Positions 28,685 through 55,489 of a stretch of DNA of 64,000 nucleotides are shown one piece after another. This DNA is from an uncultured Armatimonadetes bacterium (lineage in GTDB: Bacteria; Armatimonadota; UBA5829; DTJY01): the NCBI GenBank assembly GCA_937875395.1, contig CALNCU010000227.1, positions 1,297 through 65,296 on the forward strand. Direction: 5' to 3'. The notes beneath the pieces were generated by a model, which saw only the letters and a list, made by a program, of their open reading frames with translations, did no database searches and was not told the origin of the DNA. Both the position numbers and the translations under genes were made by a program. How positions within the stretch are numbered: position 1 is the stretch's first letter; every line of letters starts with the position of its first letter.

Positions 28685-30641
<1,957 letters not shown>

Positions 30642-30699
30642 CAAAAACCTGAAGAGAGGGGCGGGTGTTATTCATCCGTCCCTCTTTTTTATATGAGAG

Positions 30700-32175: not shown

Positions 32176-32766
32176 GTGGACTATTTGGTAAGCACAGATG
32201 CCATTCTGGTGCTCCGATGTCAGGAGGACGACAGCCAGGCCTTCGATGAGATAGTTCGGCAGTACAAGGATGGGATTTATAACTATATTCTAAGGATGAT
32301 CTCAAACCGTGACGATGCGGAAGACCTGGCCGTGGAGGTCTTTGTAAGGGCGTTTGCCGCTATAAAGAGCTTCAGGAGGGATTCCAACCTGCGCACATGG
32401 CTCTACCGTATAGCCACCAACCTATGCATTGATAAGTACAGGCGGTATGGTATTGAGCGGAAAAAGCTTGTGCCGCTTGAGCGCGAGTACGGCGATGGCG
32501 AGATCAGGCCGATGGATCTGCCGGATACAAGCTTTGATCCAGAGAAGCTGCTTGGGCAGAAAGAATTGAGCGATCAGATACACCGGGCCATCGCAAAGCT
32601 GCCGGAAAAGCTCCGTGCCCCCATACTCATGTATGATATGGAGGACATGTCCTACGGGCAGATTGCAGAGGTTCTGGGCTGCCCTATAGGCACCGTGAAA
32701 TCCAGAATATTCAAGGCAAGAACGCAGCTTAGGCGCATGCTTCTGCCGTATGTGCAGAATACGTAG
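32176..32766 (+). CDS. ECF (sigma-70 family group 4) RNA polymerase sigma factor
   Basis: Region 2 (DAEDLAVEVFVRAF...RTWLYRIATNLCIDKYRR) and region 4 (MSYGQIAEVLGCPIGTVKSRIFKAR). GTG start at 32176. Confidence 0.85.
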   Translation: MDYLVSTDAILVLRCQEDDSQAFDEIVRQYKDGIYNYILRMISNRDDAEDLAVEVFVRAFAAIKSFRRDSNLRTWLYRIATNLCIDKYRRYGIERKKLVPLEREYGDGEIRPMDLPDTSFDPEKLLGQKELSDQIHRAIAKLPEKLRAPILMYDMEDMSYGQIAEVLGCPIGTVKSRIFKARTQLRRMLLPYVQNT

Positions 32767-32784
32767 AGTGCTGTTTGAAAGTGG

Positions 32785-33294
32785 GTGTGCAGTATGAACT
32801 GCAAAGAGTGTTACAGATACCTGGGCGAATATGTAGACCGGACGCTTGATGATTGCGCCCTGGCAGAGATGGAGGCTCATATTAGGGTGTGCCCCAAATG
32901 TGCATCTCTAGCTGCAGAACTGGGGGGCGTGGCATCTCTGGTGAAATCGCTTGATAGACAGGCAGCGCCTTCAGGGTTTGAGGATAGGTTGAACGCGCAG
33001 ATTCTCCATCGCAAAGAGGAGGCAAAGCCAGGCCTGCTAAGAAGGTTGCTCCTGGGGGTGCCGCCGGAAGTATACGGATACCGCCGTTCCCTGGGGCCTG
33101 CGCTTGCCACGGTACTGCTCACCGCAGCAGTTGGAACATCGCTTATGTTCACAAATTATAATGCAAGCGGCGATGCTGCATACATAAACGCAGTACAGCA
33201 GCAGCATGTAACCTTTGCATCGGCAAACCCCCTGTCGGACGAATCAGCACTCATCTTAAGCGACCGGATGAAAGAGTTGAATGAGCCTCTTTAG
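32785..33294 (+). CDS. anti-sigma factor with zinc-finger (zf-HC2/ZAS) N-terminus and single TM
   Basis: CKECYRYL...HIRVCPKCAS HxxxCxxC motif and a TM helix (LATVLLTAAVGTSLMF). Immediately follows the ECF sigma gene. Confidence 0.6.
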   Translation: MCSMNCKECYRYLGEYVDRTLDDCALAEMEAHIRVCPKCASLAAELGGVASLVKSLDRQAAPSGFEDRLNAQILHRKEEAKPGLLRRLLLGVPPEVYGYRRSLGPALATVLLTAAVGTSLMFTNYNASGDAAYINAVQQQHVTFASANPLSDESALILSDRMKELNEPL

Positions 33295-33339
33295 GGCGCA
33301 TTCCAACAAATCTTTCCCCCGGATTTTATTGGGAAGGTA

Positions 33340-34320
33340 ATGAGATATTTATTAACATTTACATATATTCTTACTCTGGCATTTGCGTATGCCCCGGCTT
33401 CATCTGCCGCGCCCAGCGGCTCCCTGGTGCTAAAACGCATGCTTGCATCTGAAGGCAGCAGGGCCTATGTGGGAACGCAGGTGACCACCCTTGCCGCAGA
33501 TTCCAACGTCACATCAGAGCAGAAGGTGGCGCGCTATGGTTACAAGGGCATGCGGATGGAATATCTAAGCCCGCAAAGGCTCAAAGGCGAAGTGATTGCA
33601 GACAATGGCAAAGTTATAATGCACTATATCCCCAGCCGCAAAGTGGTTCGCACCCATCCCTCCAGGCTTGCCATGCAGCGGCAGAGATTAATGCAGATGA
33701 GCAGGGGGAATCTAAAGGCCAAGCTGGTGGGCAGTGACAGAATTGCAGGGCGCAGCGCCTACGTAATAGAGGTTAGTCCGGTGCGGAGCAGGGTGCTTAC
33801 CAGAAAGTTTTGGGTAGATACCGCCACATGGGTGAAGCTGAAAACGGAAGATATAGGCCCAAACGGCGCCGTTATATCTACATCTTACTTTAAAAAAATA
33901 AAATATGTTCCCTCCATCCCTGCCTCCATGTTTAAGGTGAACCCGCCGGACGGTGTAAGGGTGAAGCGCGGGCCGGCCTCTGCGTCCAGGCTGCTCTCAC
34001 TGGAGCAGGCGCAGGACAAGGCGGGGTTCCGCGTGCTAAGCCCCTCATATCTTCCGCCCGGATTCCGGTTTGCAGGCGCCACGGTTACCCGGTTCCGCGG
34101 GGACAATATGGTGGCGGTAAGATACACGGACGGCATGACATCGTTCTCCATTATGCAGGTGCCGGATAATGCGCTTAAACCCAGGTTCCAGCGGCGTCTT
34201 AGAGGCGGGCCGGAGCGTACGGGCGCGGGTTATTCCTGGAAACAGAACGGCATAAGCCTTACCATTATCGGGCGCATCCCCTACAACCAGATAACCAATA
34301 TAGCAGACTCCGTAAAATAG
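33340..34320 (+). CDS. secreted LolA-like / RseB-MucB-like domain protein (sigma-E module accessory)
   Basis: Signal peptide. Its size and its position after the sigma/anti-sigma pair are typical of RseB-like or DUF4367 LolA-fold proteins. No strong motif. Confidence 0.45.
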   Translation: MRYLLTFTYILTLAFAYAPASSAAPSGSLVLKRMLASEGSRAYVGTQVTTLAADSNVTSEQKVARYGYKGMRMEYLSPQRLKGEVIADNGKVIMHYIPSRKVVRTHPSRLAMQRQRLMQMSRGNLKAKLVGSDRIAGRSAYVIEVSPVRSRVLTRKFWVDTATWVKLKTEDIGPNGAVISTSYFKKIKYVPSIPASMFKVNPPDGVRVKRGPASASRLLSLEQAQDKAGFRVLSPSYLPPGFRFAGATVTRFRGDNMVAVRYTDGMTSFSIMQVPDNALKPRFQRRLRGGPERTGAGYSWKQNGISLTIIGRIPYNQITNIADSVK

Positions 34321-34535
34321 TTTAGCAGGCATCCTGCGGTCTTGCCCTGTCACTGGATTTGGATGATCTGATAGGGGGCATCAAGGGCTTGCGGCCCGCT
34401 GCGGGAGGATTAAGCAACCTGTCTATCTGAAAGACCGGGTGCCAATGAATTCCACCTGCAAGACTGGACAGGGTGAGTATTCTATGATACATTCTCCTTA
34501 CTGCTGCAGTATGTTTTGGCAGTGAAGGTGCAAGG

Positions 34536-35360
34536 ATGGAAGATTCCCCAAACTACCGCGTGCTTGCCGTGGATGACGAACCGGTAGTACACAGAATGCT
34601 GGAGACAATAATAGGGAGCTGCGGCCTCCCCGTGACGCTTGAAGGTACGGCCCTAAGCGGAGAAGAAGCGCTGAATTTGGCGCGCCGAATTCTGCCGGAT
34701 ATCTGCATCCTTGATATTCGCATGGAAGGCATGGATGGGCTGGAACTTGCCCGCCGACTTAAAAATGTCCCCGGCATCTCCCCCAGAATCATCTACCTCA
34801 CCGCTTACGACAGGTTTGAGTATGCGCAAAAGGCTGTGCACCTGGGCGCCGTAGAATACATTCTAAAGCCCATAGATCGCAGAGAGCTCACCCTGGCGCT
34901 TGGGCGAGCGGTAAACTCTTTGCAGGCAGAACGGCTGAACCGGCTGCAAGCAGAAAAGGTGCGCCGCAAGCTTAAAACCGTGCTGCCGGGAGCGCTCCCT
35001 TCTGCCAAATTACCCGCACAGAGCCGGAATGCAGAGATTGCCGCTACTGTTCGCACCTACATAGAGCAGCATTATGCAGAAAATATATCGCTTGAAGATG
35101 CGGCATCCGGCCTGGAACTTAGCCCGGGGTACGTTGGGCCAGTCTTCAAATCAATATGCGGGCTCTCCTTCCGGGCATACCTCAGGTCTGTACGGATTGC
35201 AAGGGCCGCAGAACTTATGGCAGACCAGAGCCTTAACCTGTCCCAGATAGCCCAGATGGTAGGCTATGAAGATTTAAACTATTTCAGCCAGGCGTTTCTT
35301 AAAGAGACCGGAGTGCGCCCAAGCGAATACAGGGGAGGTGGCCGCAGGTGGGCCAAGTAA
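34536..35360 (+). CDS. two-component response regulator with AraC-type HTH output (YesN-like)
   Basis: Receiver domain (VLAVDDEP...DICILDIRMEGMDGLEL...IIYLTAYD...KP) plus C-terminal AraC HTH (SQIAQMVGYEDLNYFSQAFLKETGVRPSEYR). Confidence 0.85.
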   Translation: MEDSPNYRVLAVDDEPVVHRMLETIIGSCGLPVTLEGTALSGEEALNLARRILPDICILDIRMEGMDGLELARRLKNVPGISPRIIYLTAYDRFEYAQKAVHLGAVEYILKPIDRRELTLALGRAVNSLQAERLNRLQAEKVRRKLKTVLPGALPSAKLPAQSRNAEIAATVRTYIEQHYAENISLEDAASGLELSPGYVGPVFKSICGLSFRAYLRSVRIARAAELMADQSLNLSQIAQMVGYEDLNYFSQAFLKETGVRPSEYRGGGRRWAK

Positions 35361-36556
35361 AGCTTTCAGATATTGTAAACCTCCCTGCCTTTGAAGAGGC
35401 CGGCCGTCTCTTCCACAGGGCTACCGGCATGAGCCTCTCCTTTAAAGATGATTCCGGCCAGGTGTTCTTCTACCCGGCGGAGGAGCGGTGCGATTTTTGC
35501 CGCCTTATCCAGAGCACCCGGGAAGGAAAGAGCCGGTGCGCGCTTTCAGATAAAAAGGCCGCAGAGCGCGCGCTTGAAGGCAGAAAACCCATCTCTTACA
35601 CCTGCCACGCAGGCCTTGTAGATGTTGTGGTGCCCGTAGTTGTGGGGGGAGAGCGGGTAGGGTGCTTTTATAGCGGGCAATCTTCCCTTACCCCGCCTAC
35701 AACAATGGGTTACCAGGAGATTATCCCCAAAATTGCAGACCTTGGGCTGAACCCAGATGATGTATGGAACGCCTACATGAAGGTTCCGCTTGTAGACGGC
35801 AGGCGGCTCTCCGTAGCAATGGGGCTTTTAAGCGTTATCTGCAACCACCTTGTAGAAGGGGAGATAGCATTAAGGCAGGAGAGGGCGCTGACCGTAGAAC
35901 AGAAGAAGCTAAGGCGCGCGGCAGAAGAGAGCGCCCGCCTTGAACACGACTTGAGAGAGATGGAACTCAGGCTTCTGCAGGCGCAGCTTAACCCCCACTT
36001 TCTATTTAACACCCTGAACCTTATAGCAGGGCAGGCCATGATGGAAGACGCCCCGGAGACCGCCCACCTGGTTCAAGAACTCTCCCGCCTCCTTAGAAAT
36101 TCGCTCTCAAGCATAGGGAAGATTGTGCCCCTCTGCGAAGAGGTAGAGAGCGCCCGGGCCTACGTAGAAATATTCAGGGCGCGCTTTGAGCGGAACGTAG
36201 AACTCATTTTAAGCCTTTCAGAGAACCTGAAGAGCGTAGATGTCCCGGCGCTTATACTGCAGCCGGTTATAGAAAACTCGCTCAGGTACGCCGGGGGCTC
36301 GCTCCTTCTTAAAATCCGCACAGAAGAGAGGGATGGCTGCATCTGCATCTCCGTGGAAGACAACGGCCCCGGAATCCCTGAAAAACGGCTGGCAGAGATT
36401 ACGGCATCCCTTTGCAGCAAAGATCACAAAGGCAAGCTTACAGGTCTCTCCGGGCTCAACAGACGCCTTAAGTACTACTACCCGCACGTACCGGATATTT
36501 CAATAGCAAATCTTGATCCCGGGCTCTCTGTTGCCATTGCCATACCCTTAAAATAA
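35348..36556 (+). CDS. cytoplasmic sensor histidine kinase with N-terminal PocR-like ligand-binding domain (YesM/LytS-type His_kinase + HATPase_c)
   Basis: No TM helices. N-terminal 170 aa resemble a PocR domain, followed by LNPHFLFNTLNLI (His_kinase) and a C-terminal HATPase_c (DNGPGIP...GLSGL). Overlaps the response-regulator gene by 13 nt. Confidence 0.8.
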   Translation: MGQVKLSDIVNLPAFEEAGRLFHRATGMSLSFKDDSGQVFFYPAEERCDFCRLIQSTREGKSRCALSDKKAAERALEGRKPISYTCHAGLVDVVVPVVVGGERVGCFYSGQSSLTPPTTMGYQEIIPKIADLGLNPDDVWNAYMKVPLVDGRRLSVAMGLLSVICNHLVEGEIALRQERALTVEQKKLRRAAEESARLEHDLREMELRLLQAQLNPHFLFNTLNLIAGQAMMEDAPETAHLVQELSRLLRNSLSSIGKIVPLCEEVESARAYVEIFRARFERNVELILSLSENLKSVDVPALILQPVIENSLRYAGGSLLLKIRTEERDGCICISVEDNGPGIPEKRLAEITASLCSKDHKGKLTGLSGLNRRLKYYYPHVPDISIANLDPGLSVAIAIPLK

Positions 36557-36599
36557 ACGGCGGCATCTGGCAAAACATGTAATAATCCTGCCTTTTTCC

Positions 36600-36644
36600 A
36601 TGGTTATATGCCCCTCATGGTGATATTCTGAGTATACGGTATAT
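36600..36644 (+). promoter_or_regulatory. triple direct repeat (ATGGTTATAT / ATGGTGATAT / ACGGTATAT) upstream of the DegT operon, candidate binding sites for the AraC-type response regulator
   Basis: Copies start at 36600, 36617 and 36636 (17- and 19-bp periodicity), 37-80 bp upstream of the DegT ATG. Confidence 0.35.
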
Positions 36645-36680
36645 TGGATTTGTTCGTTCAGAGATCACAGGAGGTTTCTT

Positions 36681-37946
36681 ATGGCAGTAGATAAAGATAA
36701 GTTCACCGGTTCAGACACGGAAGGCGGCATAACAAGCAGCTATGCAATGGATGATGGCGTAGAGCTGAAAGTCTCTTATTCCTACATGGGTTCCATCTAT
36801 GATGAAGATGAAAAGCAGATGGCGCTTGCGGCAATGGCGCAGGATACGCTCACCATGGGCCCGCAGGTAAAGGCCTTTCAGGATGAATTTGCAGCAATGA
36901 GCGGCGTAAAGCATGCCTTTGCAACCACAAACTGCACCACCGCAATGCACGTGGCAACCCAGGCCCTTGGCATAGGCCCCGGCGATGAGGTTATAGTCAC
37001 CCCAAACACGTTTATTGCCACATCCCTTGTAATTCTGAAGGAGGGCGCCACCCCGGTCTATGCAGATATAGACCCCAAAACCTTCAACATAGACCCAAAA
37101 GAGATAGCAAAAAAGATTACGCCTAAAACCAAGGCCGTCTATGTGGTGCACTACGGCGGGCAGAAGTGCGATATGGACCCCATAATGGAGATTGCAAAGA
37201 AGCACAACCTCTACGTGCTTGAAGACTGCGCGCATACCCCCGGTTCTTTGTACAAAGGCAGGCGTGCCGGCAGCATAGGAGACGTGGGATGCTTCAGCTT
37301 CCACTCCCTGAAGAACATGACCACCTGCGGAGAGGGCGGCATGATTACCACTAACAGGGATGATTTGGTAGACCCCATAGAAAAGCTCCGCTGCATGAAT
37401 CTTGATCACTGGAAGAACCAGGCGGATTACTGGCTCCCCTCTCACTTTGACGTTGTAGACGTAAACGGCCGCTGGGGAAACAACTATCGCATGAACGAAA
37501 TTCAGGCGGCAGTGGGGCGCGCTCAGCTTAGAAAGCTTGAGATGCTGAACAAGACCAGGCAGGAGAAGGGCCGCAGAATATCAGACGGCATACAGGGGAT
37601 AAAGGGCATAACTCCGGTTTACGAAGACCCTAATTGCTATCACACCTACCACCTTTACACCCTTTGCATAGAGGAAGAGGAGCTTGGGGCAACCAGGGAC
37701 GACTTTATGAGAGTGCTCTACCGTGAAGAGGGCGTACAGGGCATACTTCACTACCAGCCCACCTACCACTTCACCGGCCTGAAGAAGATGGGCTACAGAG
37801 ATGATATCTGCCCAATAGCAGAGAAGTTTTTCTACAGAAGAGAACTTAACCTGCCCATGCACCCAAGGCTTACGGACCAGGAGATAAAAGATACCATAGC
37901 AGGCATAAAGAACGCCGCAGAAAAAGTTCGCGGTATGAGGGGCTGA
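36681..37946 (+). CDS. DegT/DnrJ/EryC1/StrS-family PLP-dependent sugar or cyclitol aminotransferase
   Basis: GPQVKAFQDEFA...GDEVIVTPNTF...FSFHSLKNMTTCGEGG PLP-lysine motif. ~35-aa N-terminal extension. AGGAGG RBS. Confidence 0.85.
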   Translation: MAVDKDKFTGSDTEGGITSSYAMDDGVELKVSYSYMGSIYDEDEKQMALAAMAQDTLTMGPQVKAFQDEFAAMSGVKHAFATTNCTTAMHVATQALGIGPGDEVIVTPNTFIATSLVILKEGATPVYADIDPKTFNIDPKEIAKKITPKTKAVYVVHYGGQKCDMDPIMEIAKKHNLYVLEDCAHTPGSLYKGRRAGSIGDVGCFSFHSLKNMTTCGEGGMITTNRDDLVDPIEKLRCMNLDHWKNQADYWLPSHFDVVDVNGRWGNNYRMNEIQAAVGRAQLRKLEMLNKTRQEKGRRISDGIQGIKGITPVYEDPNCYHTYHLYTLCIEEEELGATRDDFMRVLYREEGVQGILHYQPTYHFTGLKKMGYRDDICPIAEKFFYRRELNLPMHPRLTDQEIKDTIAGIKNAAEKVRGMRG

Positions 37947-38617
37947 TGTCCGCAGGCATTAGAGACATAAGCGGCTGGATATACGGCGGGATGTGGTCTT
38001 ACTGCCCGGAATACCCCGGGGCAGACATACAGGAGCTTCCACAGCCCGCCTTCCTGCCGCCTGATTATCCGGTCTACCTGCAAAAGTTTATCATAGGCGG
38101 GCAGACCGGAACCTATATAGAGACCAGGGCGCATGTAGACCCAAAGGCAGAACCCGTGACGGCTCTGCCGCTATCACAGTTTTTGCGCCCGGCAGTGGTA
38201 ATAAATGTTGGAGAGAAGGGGCCGGGCCGGGTCATCAGCGTGGCTGACCTTGAGCAGGCGAAGCCGGATATACATCCGGGCGATGCAGTCCTTCTCTCCA
38301 CGGGTTGGGATAAAAATTGGAATGAACCGTACTTTATAGAGGGCAGCCCGTACATAGAACATGAGGCCGCCCTCTGGCTCATAAAAAGAGAGATAGGGCT
38401 GCTTGCAAGCGATTTCCCGCGTTTTGATAACCCCTCCAGCATGCAGTTTCCGTGGGATGCGTTCTGGGAGCATGTAAATCTGCTTCTGGCGCCGGTTACA
38501 AACCTTGACGGGCTCTCCGGCAGGTGCGGAATGCTGGCAGCCTTTCCGCTTAAAATCCGCGGAGCATGCTCCACCCCGTGCCGTGCCGCCCTGCTTCTAA
38601 GCAAGGAGGATTTATAG
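37946..38617 (+). CDS. putative cyclase-family metal-dependent hydrolase (kynurenine formamidase-like fold)
   Basis: Its ATG shares the A of the DegT TGA stop. 223 aa with an HxD-like metal site. Family call moderate. Confidence 0.65.
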   Translation: MSAGIRDISGWIYGGMWSYCPEYPGADIQELPQPAFLPPDYPVYLQKFIIGGQTGTYIETRAHVDPKAEPVTALPLSQFLRPAVVINVGEKGPGRVISVADLEQAKPDIHPGDAVLLSTGWDKNWNEPYFIEGSPYIEHEAALWLIKREIGLLASDFPRFDNPSSMQFPWDAFWEHVNLLLAPVTNLDGLSGRCGMLAAFPLKIRGACSTPCRAALLLSKEDL

Positions 38618-38619
38618 TA

Positions 38620-40044
38620 TTGATTTCTTTAACAAAGAAAGATATTGTGCGGGGGCTTGTATCCCTTGGGCTGGAATCCGGCGACAAGGTGCTTATGCAC
38701 TCATCATTTGTGGCGCTGGGAAAGGTTGAAGGCGGCCCCAACACGGTAATAGACGCTCTTCTTGAGGTGCTGGGGGAGGACGGGCTTCTGGTTATGCCCA
38801 CATTTTCTGCCGGTTCGCCGTTTAACAGAAAGAACGCTCCCACCGGGCTGGGCGTCATTCCAGATGCTTTTTGGCGGCTGCCGGGCGTAGTGCGCAGCCT
38901 TCATCCTTCGCATTCCGTAGCTGCCATGGGGCCGGGGGCGGAAGATTTAATAAGGGATCATGAGAAGGCTCCCACGGCTTACGGAGAGGGCACTCCGTAC
39001 TGCAAACTTGCAATGGGGGGCGGCAAAGTGCTCCTTCTGGGCGTAGACCAGGATAGAAATACCACCCTGCACGCCGCAGAGGCCGCTGCCGGCGCTCCGT
39101 ACCTTAAAAACATAGAAGGCGCCTACATAGATGATAACGGGGATGAGGTTAAAATCCCCATCGCCGCCATGGCAGGGCCTCACCGGGATTTCATAGGATT
39201 AGATAAGCTCTTCCGTGAGAAGGGCATTATGCGCATAGGTCGTATAGGCAGGGCCGCATGCCGCCTTATGGATGGAGAGGCCATGCTCCTTGCAGCCATA
39301 GAGGCTCTTCAAAAAGACCCGGCGGCGGTGCTCTGCAACAATCCCGCCTGCTGGGATTGCGTGCGCCAGCGCGGGCAGATAAAGGCGGCCCGTCTGCTGG
39401 ACGAGTGCTTCACCCTTGCCGCCGTAGCCGGAGATATATCAGAAGATTGGGAAGATGTACACCGGGCGATTCTGGGTGAGGGAATCTCCGCCCTGGAGCT
39501 TACCGCAGAAGAGTATGAGCGCTGGAGTTCTGACTTGACTGATGCCGGCATAAGTATTTCCGCCATCCGCGGAGGCCTTAAGGGTAATGCCGCCGCAAAG
39601 CTTGCGGAGAGCCTGGGCGTGCCGTTTATTGTCCCTGCATCCTGCGAAGAGGATATGGCCGCCGCCGCAAAGCTCCCCGGACGGGTGATAGTAGAGAATA
39701 CAGGGGCATGCTCCGCCGTCTACAAAGAGGCTTACAACCGTGACGGCATGCCGGAGTTTGCCTTCAATCCCGCGCAATTTGCGGCTGTAGGAGAGAAGCC
39801 GTTTTTGCGGGTCTTTTACAGAGGAACGCTTAGAAAGCATACCGTTCATTTCTATCTAGACGATGGGCTGTTTAACGGAACCCCAACCCTTCCGGGCCAG
39901 GGGAACGGAGAAGTAAAAGAGATAATCTCCATGCTGCGCTGCCGCGGATACAATGGAGCCATCACACTCCGCGCGCGCAGTGGCGGCACAGCGGGGTTCA
40001 GGGAAGCGGCATTGGCTTTCTGGTACCTGTTGGATAACATGTAA
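38620..40044 (+). CDS. fusion protein: AAC(3)-family aminoglycoside/aminocyclitol N-acetyltransferase domain + xylose-isomerase-like TIM-barrel (sugar-phosphate isomerase/epimerase) domain
   Basis: N-terminal VLMHSSFVALGKVEGGPNTVIDALLEVLGEDGLLVMPTFS is a strong match to the AAC(3)/YokD family. C-terminal ...VIVENTG...HFYLDDG...GNGEV...LRCRGYNGAITL matches the xylose-isomerase-like barrel. TTG start at 38620 with AAGGAGGA RBS, 2 nt after the cyclase stop. Confidence 0.65.
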   Translation: MISLTKKDIVRGLVSLGLESGDKVLMHSSFVALGKVEGGPNTVIDALLEVLGEDGLLVMPTFSAGSPFNRKNAPTGLGVIPDAFWRLPGVVRSLHPSHSVAAMGPGAEDLIRDHEKAPTAYGEGTPYCKLAMGGGKVLLLGVDQDRNTTLHAAEAAAGAPYLKNIEGAYIDDNGDEVKIPIAAMAGPHRDFIGLDKLFREKGIMRIGRIGRAACRLMDGEAMLLAAIEALQKDPAAVLCNNPACWDCVRQRGQIKAARLLDECFTLAAVAGDISEDWEDVHRAILGEGISALELTAEEYERWSSDLTDAGISISAIRGGLKGNAAAKLAESLGVPFIVPASCEEDMAAAAKLPGRVIVENTGACSAVYKEAYNRDGMPEFAFNPAQFAAVGEKPFLRVFYRGTLRKHTVHFYLDDGLFNGTPTLPGQGNGEVKEIISMLRCRGYNGAITLRARSGGTAGFREAALAFWYLLDNM

Positions 40045-40061
40045 ATATTAAGGAGAAGAAT

Positions 40062-40850
40062 ATGAGCAAAGCAAGAATTATGTACAATATGACGGTTGAA
40101 GAGGTACGGGAAGGCTTAAAAGAGATGAAAACCGTATTTCTGCCCATTGGCGTAGTAGAGCAGCACGGCTACCACATGCCTTTAAGTGTAGACATACATA
40201 ACGCCTACGAGATCTCCAAGATGGCATCAGAGCGGTGCGGCTGCTTTGTGGCCCCTCCAGTGCACTACAGCTTCTCCGGCGGAAGCCTCCCCGGTACCAT
40301 AAACATCCCTCCGCAGCTCTTTTCTATGGTTGTTATGGAGATATGCCACAGCCTTGTTGTGCAGGGGTTCAAAAATATTGCAATAATCCTTGGGCACGGA
40401 GGCACAGAGAACGTGCGCGCATCCTTTGACGCAGCAGAGAACTTTCAGCGGCTTAACCCGGATGTCTCCGGCGTCACCATCTCCGTGGTGCCGTTCTGGG
40501 AATTCTCCCCAACATACATGAAATCCTTTGAAGAGGGAGATTTCCACGCCGGCAAGTACGAAACATCCCTTATGCTCTACTGGAAGCCGGAACTTGTTAA
40601 AATGGAGAAGGCGCGCCTTGATTCGCCAGAAATAGTTAAAATGATGCGCACAGACCAGGATGCCTTCCTTGTAAAGACAAAGGCGGTAGATCACAAGTAC
40701 GTAATACCAAAGATGGTTCAGCACCCGGCAATAGAGGTGGGTGTCATGGGTAATTTTGAAGGAGCAAGCGCAGAGCTTGGCAAAAAAATTGCAGAAGAAT
40801 GCGCAGACAGCCTTGCCAATATGGTTTGGCAGTTGGAGGGGAATAAGTAA
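40062..40850 (+). CDS. creatininase-family amidohydrolase
   Basis: VEQHGYHMPLSVD...ILGHGGTEN...HAGKYETS metal-binding pattern of the creatinine amidohydrolase / ArfB / MftE family. AAGGAG RBS. Confidence 0.75.
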   Translation: MSKARIMYNMTVEEVREGLKEMKTVFLPIGVVEQHGYHMPLSVDIHNAYEISKMASERCGCFVAPPVHYSFSGGSLPGTINIPPQLFSMVVMEICHSLVVQGFKNIAIILGHGGTENVRASFDAAENFQRLNPDVSGVTISVVPFWEFSPTYMKSFEEGDFHAGKYETSLMLYWKPELVKMEKARLDSPEIVKMMRTDQDAFLVKTKAVDHKYVIPKMVQHPAIEVGVMGNFEGASAELGKKIAEECADSLANMVWQLEGNK

Positions 40851-40851
40851 A

Positions 40852-41898
40852 ATGGTTAAATGGGGAATTATAGGCTGCGGAGGCATTGCCCGCCGCAGGA
40901 TGATACCGGCGCTGCCGGAGTGTAAAAACAGCCAGGTTGTTGCAGTTATGGATGTAGACAGGGCTGCCGCAGATGAAGTTGCCGCGCAGATAGGCGCCCG
41001 CGCCTATTACACAGAGGCGGAACTGCTGCGCAACCCGGATGTTCAGGCGGTATACATAGCAACCCCCGTCTTTCTGCATCACGACCAGGTAATTGCAGCG
41101 GCAAAAGCGGGCAAGCACGTACTGGCAGAGAAGCCCATTGCGCTTGCAGTCTCTGAGGCGGAAGAGATGATTGCGGCCTGCAAAGAGGCCGGAGTCTACT
41201 TTACGGAAGGCTACATGATGAAGTTCCACAGCCTTAATGAAGCCGCGCGCAGCATGGTGGCAAAGGGAGAATTGGGCAACATAGTCTTTGCCCGGGCGCA
41301 GCTCTCCTGCTGGTACCCGGATATAAAGGGCGCATGGAGGCAGGACCCAAAGCTTGGCGGCGGCGGATCTCTTATGGATATGGCCACCCACTGCTATGAT
41401 CTTCTTCAATATATAATAGGCTCCAAGATAAAAGAGGTCTTTGCATACACGGATACCCTTACGTTTAAGTACCCGGTTGAAGACAGCTCCACCACCATGC
41501 TCAAGTTTGAGAACGGCGCGCATGCGGTTGTGGATGCCTTCTTCAACGTGCCGGATGCAGCAGGGCAGGCTCGGCTTGAGGTCTACGGGAACAAGGGGAG
41601 CATACAATCGGAAGGCACCATAGGGCAGATGCCCGGCGGACGGATGTATGCATATATCTCAAGCGATTCCAAAGACTACGATCCGCAGCAAAACAAGGAG
41701 AGCCTGGATGTTGTTAAAAGAGAGGTAATGCGCAAACCCGTAAATATGTACGCGCAGGAGATGGATTACCTCTCCGGTTGCATAGATAAGGGGAAGGCCC
41801 CCGCATTCTCCACGGCGGAGGAGGGGCTGTTCATTCTGAAGGTGGCAAAGGCCGCCTATGAGAGCAGCAGAACTGGAGCCGGCACAAAGGTAGAATAA
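40852..41898 (+). CDS. Gfo/Idh/MocA-family NAD(P)-dependent oxidoreductase (inositol/sugar dehydrogenase-like)
   Basis: MVKWGIIGCGGIARRR Rossmann start plus C-terminal Gfo/Idh/MocA domain. ATG is 1 nt after the creatininase-like stop. The ORF-track N-extension was rejected. Confidence 0.85.
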   Translation: MVKWGIIGCGGIARRRMIPALPECKNSQVVAVMDVDRAAADEVAAQIGARAYYTEAELLRNPDVQAVYIATPVFLHHDQVIAAAKAGKHVLAEKPIALAVSEAEEMIAACKEAGVYFTEGYMMKFHSLNEAARSMVAKGELGNIVFARAQLSCWYPDIKGAWRQDPKLGGGGSLMDMATHCYDLLQYIIGSKIKEVFAYTDTLTFKYPVEDSSTTMLKFENGAHAVVDAFFNVPDAAGQARLEVYGNKGSIQSEGTIGQMPGGRMYAYISSDSKDYDPQQNKESLDVVKREVMRKPVNMYAQEMDYLSGCIDKGKAPAFSTAEEGLFILKVAKAAYESSRTGAGTKVE

Positions 41899-41930
41899 AA
41901 CGCAATATAAGCCGTAATATGGTTAGAAAA

Positions 41931-41965
41931 AGGATGCAGTCCAGAGCGGGCTGCATCCTTTTTTG
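41931..41965 (+). terminator. Rho-independent terminator after the Gfo/Idh/MocA gene
   Basis: AGGATGCAG tccagagcggg CTGCATCCT followed by TTTTTTG: a perfect 9-bp GC-rich stem, 11-nt loop and U-tract. Confidence 0.7.
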
Positions 41966-42022
41966 CAGAGTATGGTTACCAATCCCTCTTATGTGGAAAG
42001 AATTACGCGGAGGTACAGACCA

Positions 42023-42883
42023 ATGCGTATTACAAGAAAACTTGGGTTTGCGTTTATGTTGTGCATTCTTCTTTCCGGCGGGGTACAGGCGGCCGGGCCG
42101 TCGCTTGGCGGGCTGCACGTTTCGGACAGCTTGGATACGCTCTTTAACGCCATGCGCACCCCGGAGCTTATCCGCGCCCGCCGGATGAACGGCCCGCAGC
42201 TGGATCATGTATCCATGCTCTTCAACCGCCAGGGGGCAGTAATAGTTGCGCTCGCCCACTATGGAGATAAGGTGGAAACGGTTCTTACAGAATCAAAATC
42301 CATGGTCACGAATGACGGCTTAAAGGTTGGGGACCCACGCACGCTGGTTATATCTAAGCGAGGCCAGCCGGAGGAGATTGACGACAGTGACCCGCTGGTG
42401 ACGGAATACTGGTACTGGTCTCAGGGCATAAACTTTGGAATCAACAAAAAGCAGGACAGCATAGAGAATATCTTCATCTTCCCTGCCAGCAAACCTGCGG
42501 AGCGCATAGAGCATGTGGCGCTCCCGGAGAGCCGCGTTCCGGTCTCCTGCAGCCTTATAAAGAACGGCCGCAATGCGTACCTGGTGGGGACGGCTACAAA
42601 CAAACACGCCGTGCCGCTTTACGGGGTGCGCGTGGGGATTACCCTGCGGAATGAACGGAACCTGCCGGTGGATGTGGTTTTCTCAGAGATAGGCGGGCTG
42701 CTCCCCAATGCCAGCATGCCTTTTAAGGTAAGCCTGCCGTCAAGTTCCGGGTGGAACAGCTATTCCGTAAGCATACAGTCAAGCGCATTGCCTGAAGGCA
42801 TAGCGCCGCCAAACCCAAGAGCCTACTATGTAAACATGAAACAGGCCCTTTTTAAAGATGAGACATTCCTTACCAAACGCTGA
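42023..42883 (+). CDS. secreted hypothetical protein
   Basis: Signal peptide MRITRKLGFAFMLCILLSGGVQAAGP, GGAGG RBS 10 nt upstream. The ORF-track start at 41963 lies inside the upstream terminator hairpin. Confidence 0.45.
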   Translation: MRITRKLGFAFMLCILLSGGVQAAGPSLGGLHVSDSLDTLFNAMRTPELIRARRMNGPQLDHVSMLFNRQGAVIVALAHYGDKVETVLTESKSMVTNDGLKVGDPRTLVISKRGQPEEIDDSDPLVTEYWYWSQGINFGINKKQDSIENIFIFPASKPAERIEHVALPESRVPVSCSLIKNGRNAYLVGTATNKHAVPLYGVRVGITLRNERNLPVDVVFSEIGGLLPNASMPFKVSLPSSSGWNSYSVSIQSSALPEGIAPPNPRAYYVNMKQALFKDETFLTKR

Positions 42884-43011
42884 TATGTTTGCAGGACGGG
42901 CTCTTGTGCGGAGCCTGTCCTGCCTTGACTAGCATCCTCTGGGAAGGTATTATTTAATCATTCGGCAGCAGATAGATTGCCTGCCGGTAATCTTTCCAAG
43001 GGGGTAAAAGA

Positions 43012-43704
43012 GTGGCAGATATAAAGTTTGATAGAGATATACCCGTTCCCTGCAGGTACACGCCGGGGCCGGTTAAAATAGACGGCCGGCTGGAAGATGC
43101 AGCCTGGCAGAAGGCAGATAACCTTTTATTCTACGTGCCGGTTGCAAATGAGACGCCCATAAGTAAAACAGAGGCCCGCATTCTATGGGACGACAACTAT
43201 TTTTACGTAGGATTCAAGGCTTACGATAGGGATATTTGGAGTTACCTGGAAGATAGGGATTCCAATACATGCTCAGAGGATGTGCTGGAAGTATTCTTCA
43301 AGCCCTATGCAGATAAAGAGCCGTATTTCAACTTTGAGATAAATGCGCTAGGCACCGTGTATGATGCGTATAATCTGGTAAGGGGTGCAGGCGGGCAGGA
43401 TCAGCATCGCTGGCGGGCGTGGGACTGCAAGGGGCTTAAGACCGGGATATTTATAAAAGGCACGCTGAACGATCCGGCTATTGAAGATGAATACTGGCAG
43501 CTTGAGGTTGCAGTGCCGTTTGCAAGCCTGCCTTTGCTGGAAGGCAATGCTCCAAAGCCGGGCGATAAATGGATGTTCCATCTGGCACGCTATGATTATT
43601 CCATATACCTGCCAAAGGGCATGGAACTTAGCTCCTGCACTCAGATGAGCGCCTGCAACTTCCACCGGTGGGAGGATTGGCGCCCGCTTGTTTTTGAGAA
43701 GTAG
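43012..43704 (+). CDS. CBM9-like / DOMON-like carbohydrate-binding domain protein without signal peptide
   Basis: IDGRLEDAAWQKA...ILWDDNYFYVGFKAYD...EVFF...FEINALGTVYDA pattern, as in the C-terminal domain of the 13572-16448 protein. Confidence 0.5.
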   Translation: MADIKFDRDIPVPCRYTPGPVKIDGRLEDAAWQKADNLLFYVPVANETPISKTEARILWDDNYFYVGFKAYDRDIWSYLEDRDSNTCSEDVLEVFFKPYADKEPYFNFEINALGTVYDAYNLVRGAGGQDQHRWRAWDCKGLKTGIFIKGTLNDPAIEDEYWQLEVAVPFASLPLLEGNAPKPGDKWMFHLARYDYSIYLPKGMELSSCTQMSACNFHRWEDWRPLVFEK

Positions 43705-43775: not shown

Positions 43776-44672
43776 TTAAAGGGAAGGGTCTCTTAAGGCT
43801 GCCTTTACCCCGCTCAGGTAAGAGTGCTGAAACACAATCTCTCTGCAGGAGGGCGATTCCGCCGCCTTCCTGCGGCATCTTTTAATAAGACTGCCGTTTT
43901 CTGCTATAACAGAGTGCAGAGCCATTGTTACCGGGTTTACCCCCATAAGCAGCTTTATCATGGGATCCTTATGCTTGCGGTAGAATCGCACTGTAGAGAC
44001 CCCCGACATATGCATCTTTTGGCACTTCTCTTCAAAGGGTACGGGGTGCCAGTGATAGTTTAGGGCGTGTATGTTATACGCTATGCGCATGCCGGATTTC
44101 TTTAACCTGTAGCCAAGTTCCAAGTCTTCATGCCCGTATCCGGTAAAATTCTCATCAAACATGCCCACCCTTACAAGGGCCTCTTTGGGCGCAGATGCGT
44201 TTCCGGTAAGAAAGAAGAGCCAGGAGAGCTCCTTTGTGCGTTCGGAATGAAGGCACCGGCTCTCCTCCGGGTATGCCATTACATGTTTGTATTCCTTCAG
44301 CGTATCTACCTGCACCTCCCGGCCTACAACGGCGGTGTTTCTTTTTGCCGAATGTATTTTTGCATGTTCTTCCAGAAGGTGCGGGTCTGCAAGTATATCT
44401 GCATCTGTGAAGAGGATTATATCCCCTTTAGCCTCGCAGATTCCGCGGTTCCTGGCCCCGGAGCGCCCCCGGTTCTCCCCGGTAATCATGCGCAGGTTGG
44501 GGATGTTCATGGCCTCAACCATCTCCCTGGTGCCGTCCGTAGAGCCGGAATCTGAAAGGAGAATTTCGTACGCATCCTTGGGGTAGGTCTGGTTAAGGAT
44601 GGTGGGGAGCACGTGCTCCAGCGTCTCTCTTCTGTTATATGTAGGCATGACTATGCTTATGCTTAATGTCAA
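43776..44672 (-). CDS. family 2 glycosyltransferase
   Basis: ISIVMPTYNRRETL...DSGSTDGT...FTDAD(DxD). TTG start at 44672 with GGAGG RBS. Confidence 0.8.
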   Translation of the reverse strand: MTLSISIVMPTYNRRETLEHVLPTILNQTYPKDAYEILLSDSGSTDGTREMVEAMNIPNLRMITGENRGRSGARNRGICEAKGDIILFTDADILADPHLLEEHAKIHSAKRNTAVVGREVQVDTLKEYKHVMAYPEESRCLHSERTKELSWLFFLTGNASAPKEALVRVGMFDENFTGYGHEDLELGYRLKKSGMRIAYNIHALNYHWHPVPFEEKCQKMHMSGVSTVRFYRKHKDPMIKLLMGVNPVTMALHSVIAENGSLIKRCRRKAAESPSCREIVFQHSYLSGVKAALRDPSL

Positions 44673-44992
44673 AGCGGGGCCTCCATAGTTGTTGATGCAG
44701 ATTTACAAGTAATAGTGTAGCATAATATTGCATGAAAGGGTGCATATTCCTGAACATGCACCGCATATTTTGCTTCCGATGCCTCTATGTTTAGGGGCAC
44801 ACTACCAATAGTATACTCTTTAAACAGGTTTTTCTCAATCGCCGTGTGCGCAACAGATTGAAGGCTGTAACGTTGACAGTGATACCAGTGAAGTGGTAAC
44901 ATGTTATACAATTACTTATGTTGATAGATAGTGATGAGTTAGTGTGGTCTGCATGTTTTATCCAGTAACTCGAAAATCTAGCGAGAAAGCTG

Positions 44993-46096
44993 ATGAAAAT
45001 AGGAGTAGACATAGGCTTCATAGTGCAGGATAAAAGGGGCATGGGGTCGTATGTAAGGAATATGATTCAACTCCTCTTATCAGATTATACGGAACATACC
45101 TACACGCTCTTCTACAGAGATAACCGTAACAACTCCAATATCATTAAATACCTGAATTCAATTTCTGCTGCCGCCGACTACAGGCTTCTTCCGCTCCGCG
45201 CATGCCGCAATGCAGATCTGGACGTCTGTCTTTTTCCATGGAATAGAGTAGATGCAGTCCCCAAACATTGCCGCATAGCCGCCACTATTCATGATGCTGC
45301 GCCGTTTGTCTACCCGCTGCGCGGTATGATGAGATATTTTGATCAGCGGAGCGATGAGGGAAGGTTTAAGCATGCTGCAAAAACGGCGCACCTTGTTTTT
45401 GCGGTGTCAAAGTTTGCGCAGGAAGAGCTGCAAAGGTATATGCACATTCCTGAAGATAGAATAAAGGTTACGCATCTGGGCATCTCAGATTTCTTTCGCC
45501 GGCACACCGTAACCAATGATGAACGGTTGCAAATAAGGCAGATTCTTGGTTTTGAGGGGGATTTTCTACTCTTTGTGGGCGCCAATGATGAGCGGAAGAA
45601 CGTGCGCCGGCTGTTGCAGGCATACTCTCTCTGGAAGAAGAACACCGGCATGCAGCATAAACTGGTATTATGCGGGGTTTCGCCCAGGGAAGCCGACATG
45701 TACAGCAACATAACCCATGAAGATGGAGTCTCCGACGGCTTTGTTTTTCTACCTACGGTGGGAGATAAACTGCCCGGCTTGTACCGGATGGCAGCTGCGC
45801 TTGTTGTTCCTTCCCTCTACGAAGCCTTCTGTTTTCCGGTACCGGAAGCCATGGCATCCGGCACGCCCGTCATATGCTCTAATGCCGCATGCCTACCGGA
45901 AATAGCCGGGGATGCAGCGCTCTATTTTGATCCGCTAAGCGTAGAGGATATGGCGCTCAAGATAGATACATATACCCGCAATGCAGATTTGCGGGCGGAT
46001 ATGATTAAAAGAGGCTTGCAACAGGTTGAGAAATATACGTGGGAAAAGACTGTTGCAGAGACTGTTTCAGCGCTTACCCAACTGGTGGTGAATTAG
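44993..46096 (+). CDS. family 4 (GT-B) glycosyltransferase
   Basis: C-terminal E-x7-E-like region (FPVPEAMASGTPVICSNA...EIAGDAALYFDP) typical of GT4/GT1. Confidence 0.8.
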   Translation: MKIGVDIGFIVQDKRGMGSYVRNMIQLLLSDYTEHTYTLFYRDNRNNSNIIKYLNSISAAADYRLLPLRACRNADLDVCLFPWNRVDAVPKHCRIAATIHDAAPFVYPLRGMMRYFDQRSDEGRFKHAAKTAHLVFAVSKFAQEELQRYMHIPEDRIKVTHLGISDFFRRHTVTNDERLQIRQILGFEGDFLLFVGANDERKNVRRLLQAYSLWKKNTGMQHKLVLCGVSPREADMYSNITHEDGVSDGFVFLPTVGDKLPGLYRMAAALVVPSLYEAFCFPVPEAMASGTPVICSNAACLPEIAGDAALYFDPLSVEDMALKIDTYTRNADLRADMIKRGLQQVEKYTWEKTVAETVSALTQLVVN

Positions 46097-46136
46097 GTTA
46101 TCACGGGTTTCTTGCCTTATAGAAAGAGTAATATGA

Positions 46137-47204: not shown

Positions 47205-47220
47205 AATATCAGGTGTTCAA

Positions 47221-49103: not shown

Positions 49104-49193
49104 TTGCAATGCCTCTAAGAATCATATTATCTTCAAGTAATATAAAACCGGCAAAGAACCCCGGCATACTCAGTTATAGACGCGGGCTTAAGT

Positions 49194-50087: not shown

Positions 50088-50103
50088 GCTAATTCTCCGT
50101 TTA

Positions 50104-51945: not shown

Positions 51946-52022
51946 GGTATATTAAAACTCCTGGCGCTATTATAGCGCATAGTTGGGTCAGGGGCAATCT
52001 ATGCCTGCTATATAGGGTAGAA

Positions 52023-53141: not shown

Positions 53142-53227
53142 CTTGATGCTCCCGTTTTGCCCCGCAGTTCTAACTGTGGGAATACACTCACTACTAGTGG
53201 CATGTAAACTTGAATTTGTCCCGGTAC

Positions 53228-53266
53228 CTTCGGCAGTGGCGCCTTCGGCTCTGCGACCGAAGTATC
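53228..53266. repeat. REP-like element, copy C (subtype 2)
   Basis: cttcggcagtggcgccttcggctctgcgaccgaagtatc, between the two GT19 paralogs. 2 mismatches to reverse-complemented copy F. Confidence 0.6.
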
Positions 53267-53333
53267 ACCCTCCGTAATTAATTTATCAAGCCACTATTGT
53301 GTTAATAAAAGATTATTGCCACAAATTTAAATT

Positions 53334-55472: not shown

Positions 55473-55489
55473 CCGCCGTTGTACTCCTT

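Follow-up and report, generated by a model that had tools for sequence, protein, structure and literature searches.

What task falls to an antibiotic acetyltransferase-like domain that is fused to a sugar isomerase-like barrel and encoded within a regulated metabolic operon? This question is raised by seven same-strand (+) genes that open reading frame (ORF) calls and Pfam place at positions 34536-41965 of a 64,000-nucleotide (nt) stretch of DNA from an uncultured Armatimonadetes bacterium (contig CALNCU010000227.1; the whole stretch is referred to as the window). A response regulator and a sensor histidine kinase, which together make up a two-component system (TCS), are followed by five enzyme-family proteins: a DegT/DnrJ/EryC1-family aminotransferase (DegT), a cyclase-like protein, an AAC(3)::TIM-barrel fusion, a creatininase-like protein, and a Gfo/Idh/MocA-family oxidoreductase (Gfo). 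These domain assignments, the fusion included, had been made in an initial annotation from the sequence alone and were upheld for all genes by Pfam, NCBIfam, and structure comparison. The cassette is interpreted here, with evenly balanced confidence, as an inducible operon that serves the catabolism or salvage, within the cytoplasm, of an amine-bearing carbohydrate, be it an N-acylated amino sugar, an amino-glycoside, or an aminocyclitol. The parts all belong to known families and the overall logic, that of a regulated sugar-conversion operon, is familiar; what stands out most is that a relative of AAC(3)-IV, joined to a sugar barrel, is widely conserved across phyla.

The enzyme genes form a conserved unit

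A protein search returned 661 homologues of the fusion protein, which databases label merely "AAC(3) family N-acetyltransferase". These homologues are found in at least 267 species-level genomes from the Armatimonadota, Verrucomicrobiota, Planctomycetota/Phycisphaerae, Lentisphaerota/Victivallales, Omnitrophota, Ratteibacteria, Hydrogenedentota, and a few Firmicutes. Across 81 non-redundant loci, the neighbors that recur at no more than 4 kb from the fusion gene are cyclase-like (38), Gfo (23), creatininase (13), Amidohydro_3 (13), DegT (12), response regulator (5), and histidine kinase (4) genes; these counts derive from a simple ORF caller and BLAST clustering, and the contigs are often short. 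The full seven-gene order is also present in the Armatimonadota contigs L001/L006, L003, L013, and L088, and is followed in L011 up to the creatininase gene, where the contig ends. In L090, the kinase and regulator genes are inverted and lie 3.5 kb upstream on the other strand, still present, and L089 is without a TCS, with a URO-D-like gene inserted and a PIG-L deacetylase gene at the operon end. The five enzyme genes are found together in shuffled order and orientation in Omnitrophota L034, Verrucomicrobiota L050, Planctomycetes L080, and Victivallales L072/L074. Because the genes co-locate in shuffled order across phyla, their association points to function rather than to inheritance of one arrangement. 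Far from being scattered, a prospect that the initial annotation had raised, the five genes form a real conserved unit.

The composition of the unit varies. L092 carries a split version, in which a ROK regulator gene is accompanied by genes for a cyclase-like protein, a stand-alone Antibiotic_NAT protein, a stand-alone AP_endonuc_2 protein, DegT (73% identical), and a creatininase-like protein. This cassette adjoins genes for an AraC regulator, two BPD_transp_1 permeases, and a DUF3502 protein; by their domains, the transport genes look like a sugar ATP-binding cassette (ABC) importer. In L091, DegT and creatininase genes occur as a bare pair. These arrangements can be read as two sub-modules, one of cyclase-like protein, AAC(3), and TIM barrel, and one of DegT and creatininase with or without Gfo, that appear to have been joined repeatedly. 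The regulators found elsewhere are of the ROK type (L080, L092, and L093) or a GntR/LacI-type hybrid (L034).

Beyond these genes, the fusion gene most often shares its operon with amide hydrolases of several superfamilies: among 131 putative operon mates, Amidohydro_3 occurs 11 times, Amidohydro_1 10 times, Amidohydro_2 four times, and M20 three times, and polysaccharide deacetylase occurs twice. The Amidohydro_1 gene of L034 was ruled out as a pathway neighbor, being an ordinary dihydroorotase. Neighbors of amino-sugar type include PIG-L deacetylases in L080 and L089, an N-acylglucosamine 2-epimerase in L025, and, in L017, a sulfatase with an N-sulphoglucosamine sulphohydrolase C-terminal domain. 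In L001, the gene that immediately precedes the response-regulator gene, in the same orientation, encodes NAGPA, a phosphodiester glycosidase (4100-5842). An NCBIfam scan of the recurrent neighbors (Amidohydro_2/3, NAGPA, PHP-like) gave no specific names. URO-D-like (PF01208) genes also recur by the cassette (L003, 1-2265; L009, 7005-7967; L010, 6904-8031), and the one in L089 (8109-9140) is located inside it, between the DegT and cyclase-like genes. In some lineages, such genes could add a decarboxylation or a (de)methylation to the pathway.

Operon architecture

The genes of the cassette are tightly packed. The start of the kinase gene overlaps the end of the response-regulator gene by 13 nt, directly before the enzyme genes, as had been noted. 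Read from the sequence, the DegT stop and cyclase start share a TGATG overlap (37944-37948), the cyclase/fusion junction (38615-38622) consists of TAG, 2 nt (TA), and TTG, with AAGGAGG 10 nt upstream, and the creatininase/Gfo junction (40848-40854) consists of TAA, 1 nt (A), and ATG. The near-zero spacing described previously is therefore present at these three junctions, but the fusion and creatininase genes are separated by a 17-nt spacer, which contains AAGGAG. The G+C content of the cassette agrees with that of the remainder of the window, and no Rfam element (riboswitch or attenuator) was matched in the operon leader.

The unit ends at an intrinsic terminator, the arms of which (41927-41942 and 41948-41963) are followed by a run of T residues. 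The surrounding region (41895-41975) folds at -30.8 kcal/mol (z = -5.8), in keeping with the strong hairpin originally reported, but it is not the clearest terminator in the window: in a window-wide scan it ranks third by stem energy. This terminator could act in either direction. A comparable one (stem -21.9 kcal/mol, T6) is found directly 3' of the class II aldolase gene at 30645-30690.

None of the seven products has a signal peptide or transmembrane segment, as judged by hydrophobicity on the KD19 scale. Because no product has a membrane-grade hydrophobic segment, the pathway is predicted to be cytoplasmic and the kinase soluble.

Table 1 Features of the cassette, with positions in the window and the evidence for each.
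Feature	Position	Strand	Evidence
Response regulator, 274 amino acids (aa)	34536-35360	+	Response_reg 85 bits, HTH_18/AraC 70 bits
Sensor histidine kinase, 402 aa	35348-36556	+	PocR 121.7 bits, His_kinase PF06580, HATPase_c
DegT/DnrJ/EryC1-family pyridoxal phosphate (PLP) aminotransferase, 421 aa	36681-37946	+	PF01041, 367 bits
Cyclase-family (kynurenine-formamidase fold) protein, 223 aa	37946-38617	+	PF04199, 85.4 bits (cut-off 23.1)
AAC(3)::TIM-barrel fusion, TTG start	38620-40044	+	PF02522, 181.4 bits, N-terminal half only
AAC(3)/Antibiotic_NAT domain of fusion, residues 1-251, Group 1 (AAC(3)-IV-like)	38620-39372	+	PF02522
Xylose-isomerase-like TIM-barrel domain of fusion, residues ~260-474	39397-40044	+	Structure
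Creatininase-family metal amidohydrolase, 262 aa	40062-40850	+	PF02633, 181.7 bits
Gfo/Idh/MocA NAD(P)-dependent sugar oxidoreductase, 348 aa from ATG 40852	40852-41898	+	PF01408, PF22725, PF02894
Intrinsic terminator: A-tract, GC-rich hairpin, T-tract	41927-41964	+	Fold, inverted repeat
Promoter-like site before response-regulator gene, TGGACA-17-TACATT, TG extension	34465-34493	+	Consensus scan only, weak
Conserved promoter box AAAACATGTAATAATC-N5-TTTTTCCAT, 109 nt upstream of DegT start	36572-36602	+	Spacer alignment
Two direct copies of CATGGT[T/G]ATAT, 17 nt apart, over -35 region	36599-36626	+	Repeat search
Probable -10 hexamer TATATT	36641-36646	+	Putative, from alignment with orthologue promoters only

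The fusion joins an AAC(3)-IV relative to a sugar barrel

The PF02522 match spans residues 43-248 of the 492-aa ORF at 181.4 bits against a cut-off of 25, and the closest solved structure to the N-terminal ~250 residues is AAC(3)-IVa (PDB ID: 6mn3, E = 1e-34). The AAC(3)-like character of this domain, on which the initial annotation hinged, is thus borne out by the profile search. TxΦHΦAE, the Antibiotic_NAT catalytic motif (PMC8956665), is present as T148-T-L-H151-A-A-E154, with T148, H151, and E154 invariant in 69 family members. In addition, the linker-like stretch C239-x4-C244-x2-C247, the cysteines of which are at least 90% conserved, aligns with the His/Cys/Cys zinc ligands that AAC(3)-IVa carries in its C-terminal extension; zinc binding itself is predicted from this alignment only.

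The substrate pocket, in contrast, appears to differ from that of the resistance enzyme. AAC(3) enzymes acetylate N3 of 2-deoxystreptamine, and in AAC(3)-IVa the aminoglycoside is contacted by W63, D67, E185, C190, and E249, of which E185 is critical in positioning the 2-deoxystreptamine ring (PMC8956665). In the fusion protein, E185 is replaced by A183, which is variable across the fusion family, and D67 falls in a deletion. The equivalent of C190 is H188, an invariant His in the family; that of W63 is F62, a variable position at which an aromatic or hydrophobic residue is retained; and the acidic position of E249 is kept as the invariant D246. The score against the NCBIfam AAC(3)-IV equivalog, 153.8 bits, does not reach the cut-off of 420. 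Judged by its residues, the domain is a competent-looking acetyltransferase of the AAC(3)-IV lineage with a pocket unlike that of the resistance enzyme. Since E185 and D67 are missing, an aminoglycoside or 2-deoxystreptamine substrate cannot be assumed.

In the C-terminal ~215 residues, neither PF01261 (AP_endonuc_2) nor any other Pfam family was matched at E ≤ 0.01. PF01261 is annotated in about 20 of 120 listed homologues of the fusion (40-46% identity), and the split barrel gene of L092 gives a weak match to it. A model predicted from 69 sequences has a predicted local distance difference test score (pLDDT) of 97 and eight beta/alpha units; in this model, the C-terminal half is a (beta/alpha)8 fold, closest to sugar isomerase and epimerase barrels. 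Its characterized structural neighbors include IolE, AsbF, IolI, TM0416, and 3-keto-glycoside lyases and epimerases, several of which act on carbocycles. With regard to the Glu-Asp-His-Glu metal-ligand set of such barrels, the domain contains the invariant acids E262, D415, E431, and E434 and a near-invariant N360, with no invariant His in the C-terminal domain. Because the model of the full-length protein is equally confident (pLDDT 96.7, predicted template modeling score 0.92), it suggests that the two domains are held in a fixed arrangement.

The remaining enzymes retain most catalytic signatures

DegT contains the PLP-lysine motif SFHSLK (residues 206-211, K211). It falls below each equivalog cut-off tested (PseC, WecE, ArnB, DesI, and RfbH; best PseC, 288.6 vs 423.5), and its nearest solved structures are perosamine synthase, glutamine:scyllo-inosose aminotransferase (third-best), and QdtB. 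DegT is 79-86% identical in the Armatimonadota cassettes and 63-75% identical in other phyla (Firmicutes, Planctomycetes, Omnitrophota, Verrucomicrobiota, and Lentisphaeria), whereas the fusion from the same loci is 57-63% identical within the Armatimonadota and 37-41% across phyla. This conservation, far above that of its operon mates, points to strong constraint or to recent exchange of a DegT(-creatininase) sub-module.

The cyclase-like and creatininase-like proteins had both been taken to be metal amidohydrolases, a description that in its canonical sense fits only the latter. In the creatininase-like protein, the metal-ligand pattern of the family is present (E33-Q-H35, D44, GHGG111-114 with H112, and HAGKYE162-167 with H162/E167). 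The binuclear-metal motif of the cyclase family is HxGTHxDxPxH, and in its place the cyclase-like protein has Q53-T-G-T-Y57-I-E59-T-R-A-H63. All 38 cyclase-like homologues beside fusion genes follow the pattern [Q/M/H]-x-G-[T/S/C]-Y-Φ-[E/D]-x3-H: the first His is exchanged for Q or M (H in a few), the second for Y in 38 of 38, and the acidic residue and last His are retained. The arylformamidase model scores 31.5 against a cut-off of 223. The protein therefore appears to represent a distinct subfamily in which at least one His ligand is replaced by Tyr; it may act either as a subunit without catalytic activity or as an atypical hydrolase.

The creatininase-like protein scores below the creatininase (119.7 vs 235), MftE (99.9 vs 172), and IolN (76.3 vs 245) equivalogs. 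Gfo (PF01408, 104 bits; PF22725, 111 bits) contains EKP at residue 93 and DMATH at 176-180 (D-x3-H). Its best NCBIfam match is IolG (147.7, cut-off 355), and its closest solved structures are 1,5-anhydro-D-fructose reductase, an aldose-aldose oxidoreductase, and DgpA. The checkable catalytic signatures (PLP lysine, EKP/D-x3-H, creatininase ligands, and AAC(3) dyad) are intact, and by this measure the enzymes look active. None of the genes reaches the NCBIfam equivalog cut-off for a characterized pathway, and for this reason assignment as a plain inositol (iol) operon or to a creatininase or mycofactocin function was rejected.

A soluble PocR kinase and a conserved promoter box

The response regulator contains its phospho-acceptor region, with DD13-14 and LD60, and its orthologues, which are 55-62% identical, hold the same position in L001, L003, L011, L013, L088, and L090. 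The kinase has an NPHF H-box at residue 215 and a PocR domain, a small-molecule sensor. Its hydrophobicity maximum (1.58, none above 1.6) lies inside the PocR domain, and the kinase is accordingly predicted to be soluble, without membrane-anchored sensing as in YesM. Like the YesM/YesN-type systems, this TCS consists of a kinase with His_kinase (PF06580) and HATPase domains and a REC-AraC regulator encoded by adjacent genes; it differs from them in that the kinase, which lacks any membrane or extracytoplasmic portion, must sense inside the cell, that the regulator is short (274 aa), and that the operator box is newly predicted.

Alignment of the kinase-DegT spacers of the orthologues revealed one kept element, AAAAC-N-TGTAATAATC followed by TTTTTCCAT, at 36572-36602. 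In a search of both strands of 91 loci plus the window (2.86 Mb), all seven matches to the AAAACNTGTAATAATC box with at most two mismatches sit 93-109 nt upstream of DegT in kinase-bearing cassettes. The box occurs once in the window, is present as an exact copy upstream of DegT in L090, even though the TCS there is inverted 3.5 kb away, and is missing from L089, the cassette without a TCS. This good comparative evidence marks the box as a candidate operator of the AraC-type regulator, to which binding is predicted. Control of the enzyme operon by the TCS, as first proposed, is supported by conserved linkage, retained in L090 despite rearrangement, and by the restriction of the promoter box to loci that have the TCS.

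The triple GGT-N-ATAT direct repeat originally noted in the promoter was rejected as the operator. Only two exact copies of the 11-nt unit CATGGT[T/G]ATAT exist (at 36599 and 36616); they are lineage-specific and are not kept in the orthologous Armatimonadota promoters. Matches to GGTNATAT are not rare in the window (11 observed vs 6.4 expected). The supposed third copy, GGTATATT at 36638, is without the N and is better taken as a putative -10 hexamer, TATATT, which aligns with TATAAT in L001, TATACT in L003, and TATTCT in L013.

A proposed catabolic route and its alternatives

In the favored model, the soluble PocR kinase would bind, within the cell, either the compound itself or an early intermediate, and would phosphorylate the REC-AraC regulator, which would then bind the AAAACNTGTAATAATC...TTTTTCCAT box, at about -80 to -50 from the predicted start site, and activate a promoter with a poor -35 element. 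The five genes would share a single, translationally coupled transcript, terminated by the hairpin at 41927-41964. In the DegT sub-module, the creatininase-family hydrolase would strip the N-acyl group, or open a cyclic amide or diketone; DegT would turn the freed amine into a ketone; and Gfo would interconvert ketone and hydroxyl. In the fusion sub-module, the TIM barrel would isomerize, epimerize, dehydrate, or beta-eliminate the keto-sugar or inosose, and the AAC(3) domain would N-acetylate a remaining or newly exposed amine with acetyl-CoA as donor, while the cyclase-like protein, its metal site partly lost, would serve as an atypical hydrolase or a non-catalytic partner. The resulting order would be deacylation, transamination to the ketone, keto/hydroxyl redox, isomerization or elimination by the barrel, and N-acetylation of a further amine. 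The catabolic direction, step order, ligand, and substrate class are all inferred.

A catabolic or salvage route is favored because the regulators are of ligand-sensing, sugar type, an importer lies beside one version of the cassette, and the neighbors include amide hydrolases and amino-sugar enzymes, and also because the solved relatives of Gfo act on free sugars or glycosides, not on nucleotide sugars. The regulators and neighbors in other phyla thus appear to tilt the balance towards degradation over synthesis.

Several points weigh against this interpretation. No transporter, kinase, or glycoside hydrolase is encoded inside the cassette, and entry into or exit to central metabolism is not visible. 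The canonical order of amino-sugar biosynthesis is to oxidize, transaminate, and N-acetylate. An acetyl-CoA-consuming step is unusual in catabolism, although not unknown; lysosomal heparan-sulfate breakdown needs N-acetylation of glucosamine. An acetyltransferase and amidohydrolases look antagonistic unless the amines or acyl groups differ. Since no gene reaches an equivalog threshold, each step is a family-level inference. Finally, distant fusion homologues have heterogeneous neighbors, and the core of fusion and cyclase-like genes often occurs without DegT (present in 12 of 81 loci), creatininase (13 of 81), or Gfo within 4 kb, so the two sub-modules may not always share a substrate.

The opposite direction, biosynthetic tailoring, is considered unlikely. 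In such a pathway, Gfo would oxidize a sugar or inositol hydroxyl, DegT would aminate it, and AAC(3) would N-acetylate the product for a surface glycan, compatible solute, or secondary metabolite, with the barrel and hydrolases trimming or isomerizing intermediates. A dehydrogenase, an aminotransferase, and an acetyltransferase constitute the canonical route to N-acetyl amino sugars or inosamines (WbpB/E/D, NtdC/A, and StsC-type), and this trio is present in the cassette. The solved structures nearest to DegT all come from biosynthesis, and the absence of a transporter or glycosidase is also in line with a synthetic role. The same cassette, however, is without a nucleotidyltransferase, glycosyltransferase, or exporter. 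A large glycosyltransferase and lipopolysaccharide (LPS)-type cluster just downstream in the window would fit a synthetic role, but flanking glycan genes are not conserved by the cassette in any other locus. Moreover, the ligand-sensing regulators (TCS, ROK, and GntR/LacI), the sugar ABC importer that one version adjoins, the prevalence of amide hydrolases among the operon mates, and the free-sugar substrates of the closest Gfo relatives all argue against synthesis.

Ring cleavage of an aminocyclitol of the inosamine or streptamine type is distinctly improbable. The precedent is an oxidative myo-inositol pathway of Thermotoga maritima (IolG, IolM, IolN, and IolO), reportedly described by Rodionova et al. 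in 2013, in which the same three families (Gfo/Idh/MocA, creatininase family, and xylose-isomerase-like barrel) are found in one operon; the cassette differs by the addition of DegT, AAC(3), and cyclase-like genes, the lack of IolM, and regulation by a PocR TCS. In an amino variant of that route, DegT would convert inosamine to inosose, Gfo would yield a diketo-inositol, the creatininase-like protein would open the ring as IolN does, the TIM barrel would epimerize the keto-acid as IolO does, and AAC(3) would handle a second ring amine. The creatininase-like protein does match the IolN model (3-dehydro-scyllo-inosose hydrolase, NCBIfam NF041098) at E = 2e-21, but the creatininase and MftE models outscore it, and both this match and the IolG match of Gfo are far below their equivalogs (76 vs 245 and 148 vs 355). 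Further points of agreement are the glutamine:scyllo-inosose transaminase among the DegT relatives, the carbocycle-active neighbors of the barrel, and L046, which has an FAA-family beta-diketone hydrolase in place of creatininase together with zinc-dependent alcohol dehydrogenase and Gfo genes. The 2-deoxystreptamine activity of AAC(3) enzymes also fits, but the ring-positioning E185 is not conserved. The ROK, PIG-L, N-acylglucosamine 2-epimerase, and NAGPA neighbors suggest hexosamines over cyclitols, and no IolB/C/D/J-type genes are seen among the annotated neighbors. A plain iol operon, a prospect that the initial annotation had raised, is not supported: IolB/C/D/E/J-type genes match none of the seven genes or their immediate flanks, and the resemblance is limited to the weak IolG-like match and an IolE-like fold.

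Sensing and inactivation of an antibiotic, whereby the kinase would detect an aminoglycoside-type drug once inside the cell, AAC(3) would acetylate it, and the other enzymes would deaminate, oxidize, and cleave it for resistance or subsistence, is very unlikely: the resemblance to the broad-spectrum AAC(3)-IVa with intact catalytic motif and Group-1 zinc-site cysteines, the cytoplasmic sensor, the lack of any need for an importer in the cassette, the Gfo/DegT pairs of gentamicin and kanamycin biosynthesis, which take aminoglycoside pseudo-oligosaccharides as direct substrates, the PIG-L deacetylases beside some cassettes, and the fold shared with 3-keto-glycoside lyases are outweighed by the retention of only two of the five AAC(3)-IVa contacts (the acidic E249 position and an aromatic or hydrophobic residue at W63), the shortfall of 154 bits against 420, and vertical conservation in uncultured saccharolytic phyla (groundwater, digesters, and rumen), with sugar-type regulators and off mobile elements.

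Relation to known systems

No described pathway with this gene combination was found in the full-text literature or curated model libraries searched, in agreement with the initial annotation, and no equivalog is reached. Relative to AAC(3)-IVa and other Group 1 Antibiotic_NAT enzymes, the fold, family, TxΦHΦAE motif, zinc-position cysteines, and an acidic residue (D246) at E249 are shared. The cassette protein differs in the missing E185 and D67 and the score far under the AAC(3)-IV equivalog, in its fusion (adjacency in L092) to a xylose-isomerase-like barrel, in its cyclase-like partner gene, and in its location within a regulated metabolic operon in place of a lone resistance gene. A family-wide survey of Antibiotic_NAT makes no mention of fusion proteins (PMC8956665).

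With respect to the other parts, the 3-keto-glycoside cleavage systems (DgpA with DgpB/C, the Bacteroides/Agrobacterium 3-keto-glucoside lyase/hydratase, and YcjR) are without an aminotransferase, acetyltransferase, or amidohydrolases, and the cassette barrel is smaller (~215 aa) and fused to AAC(3). Oxidize-then-transaminate pairs are known from NtdC/NtdA (kanosamine), WbpB/WbpE(/WbpD), GenD2/GenS2, and GnnA/GnnB. These pairs likewise combine Gfo/Idh/MocA and DegT proteins, to which the cassette adds an N-acetyltransferase. They are biosynthetic, however, and are usually accompanied by nucleotidyl- or glycosyltransferases and by acetyltransferases of the left-handed beta-helix or GNAT type, whereas the context of the cassette (hydrolases, sugar-type regulators, and the L092 importer) suggests the reverse, catabolic direction.

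Implications for AAC(3) enzymes and Armatimonadota

To our knowledge, AAC(3) enzymes are known almost solely as aminoglycoside-resistance determinants. A more speculative and rather doubtful proposal is that the cyclase-like and AAC(3)::TIM pair is an uncharacterized metabolic module, perhaps the native non-resistance job of Group-1 AAC(3), within a new PocR-induced catabolic route for amino-glycosides or aminocyclitols. If so, acetyl-CoA-dependent N-acetylation would be coupled in one polypeptide to isomerization or cleavage of a keto-sugar or inosose, and the substrates might include aminoglycoside-like natural products. The fusion is a testable candidate for a housekeeping role of AAC(3) and a plausible evolutionary reservoir of resistance. 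We know of very few characterized pathways in the Armatimonadota, and the cassette offers a well-delimited target for amino-sugar or aminocyclitol pathway discovery in this phylum. Furthermore, the soluble PocR kinase, the REC-AraC regulator, and the 16-nt box could serve as a biosensor triplet once the ligand is identified.

Surroundings of the cassette in the window

A metagenomic contig, L087, is 98.7% identical to the window and colinear with it over 34984-40535, after which it continues inverted from 44038 to 43106. The join (5541-5551 of L087) coincides precisely with a perfect inverted repeat of 11 nt, CCTTTGAAGAG / CTCTTCAAAGG, at 40525-40535 and 44028-44038 of the window, and is either a strain-level inversion or an assembly chimera. 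If real, the inversion would truncate the creatininase gene and part Gfo from the operon.

Genes for an ECF-type sigma factor, a zf-HC2 anti-sigma factor, and a MucB/RseB-like protein (32176-34320) are found directly before the TCS genes; this trio is not conserved beside the cassette in other genomes. A functional link to the upstream PfkB-aldolase-PfkB genes was rejected on the same grounds. All 120 listed homologues of the class II aldolase (29691-30641) are at least 84% identical, and it looks like a housekeeping enzyme.

Directly past the terminator, 41963-43704 encodes two proteins: one of 306 aa, which matches no Pfam family and has a hydrophobic segment at its N terminus, and a CBM9-like one of 230 aa. 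Genes with CBM9 domains are also found elsewhere, in L088 at less than 10 kb from the cassette and in L086 close to the fusion-cyclase pair. A glycan/LPS-type cluster follows at 43776-61452, with three GT2 proteins, GT4, a GT9 heptosyltransferase-like protein, an FkbM methyltransferase, an ABC exporter, an LpxB-like protein, and two PMT_2 proteins. Because of this cluster, the organism is likely a diderm with a complex surface glycan. A functional link between the cluster and the cassette was rejected, as the cluster is not conserved beside the cassette elsewhere.

A NAGPA gene is present at 62706-63950 (-), 21 kb from the cassette; NAGPA genes near cassettes are a possible hint at a natural source of substrate. 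Another N-acetylhexosamine-related locus in the window, at 13575-18289 (-), has a G+C content of 0.44 compared with ~0.52 and encodes a NAGidase (beta-N-acetylglucosaminidase)/GH20b protein of 958 aa with CBM9 modules, a prepilin-type DUF1559 protein, and an AraC regulator. Finally, the 773-aa protein encoded at 20324-22645 (-) is unrelated to the cassette; with its weak dCache, HAMP, GAF, and SpoIIE/PP2C phosphatase domains, it represents a partner-switching type of membrane sensor phosphatase.

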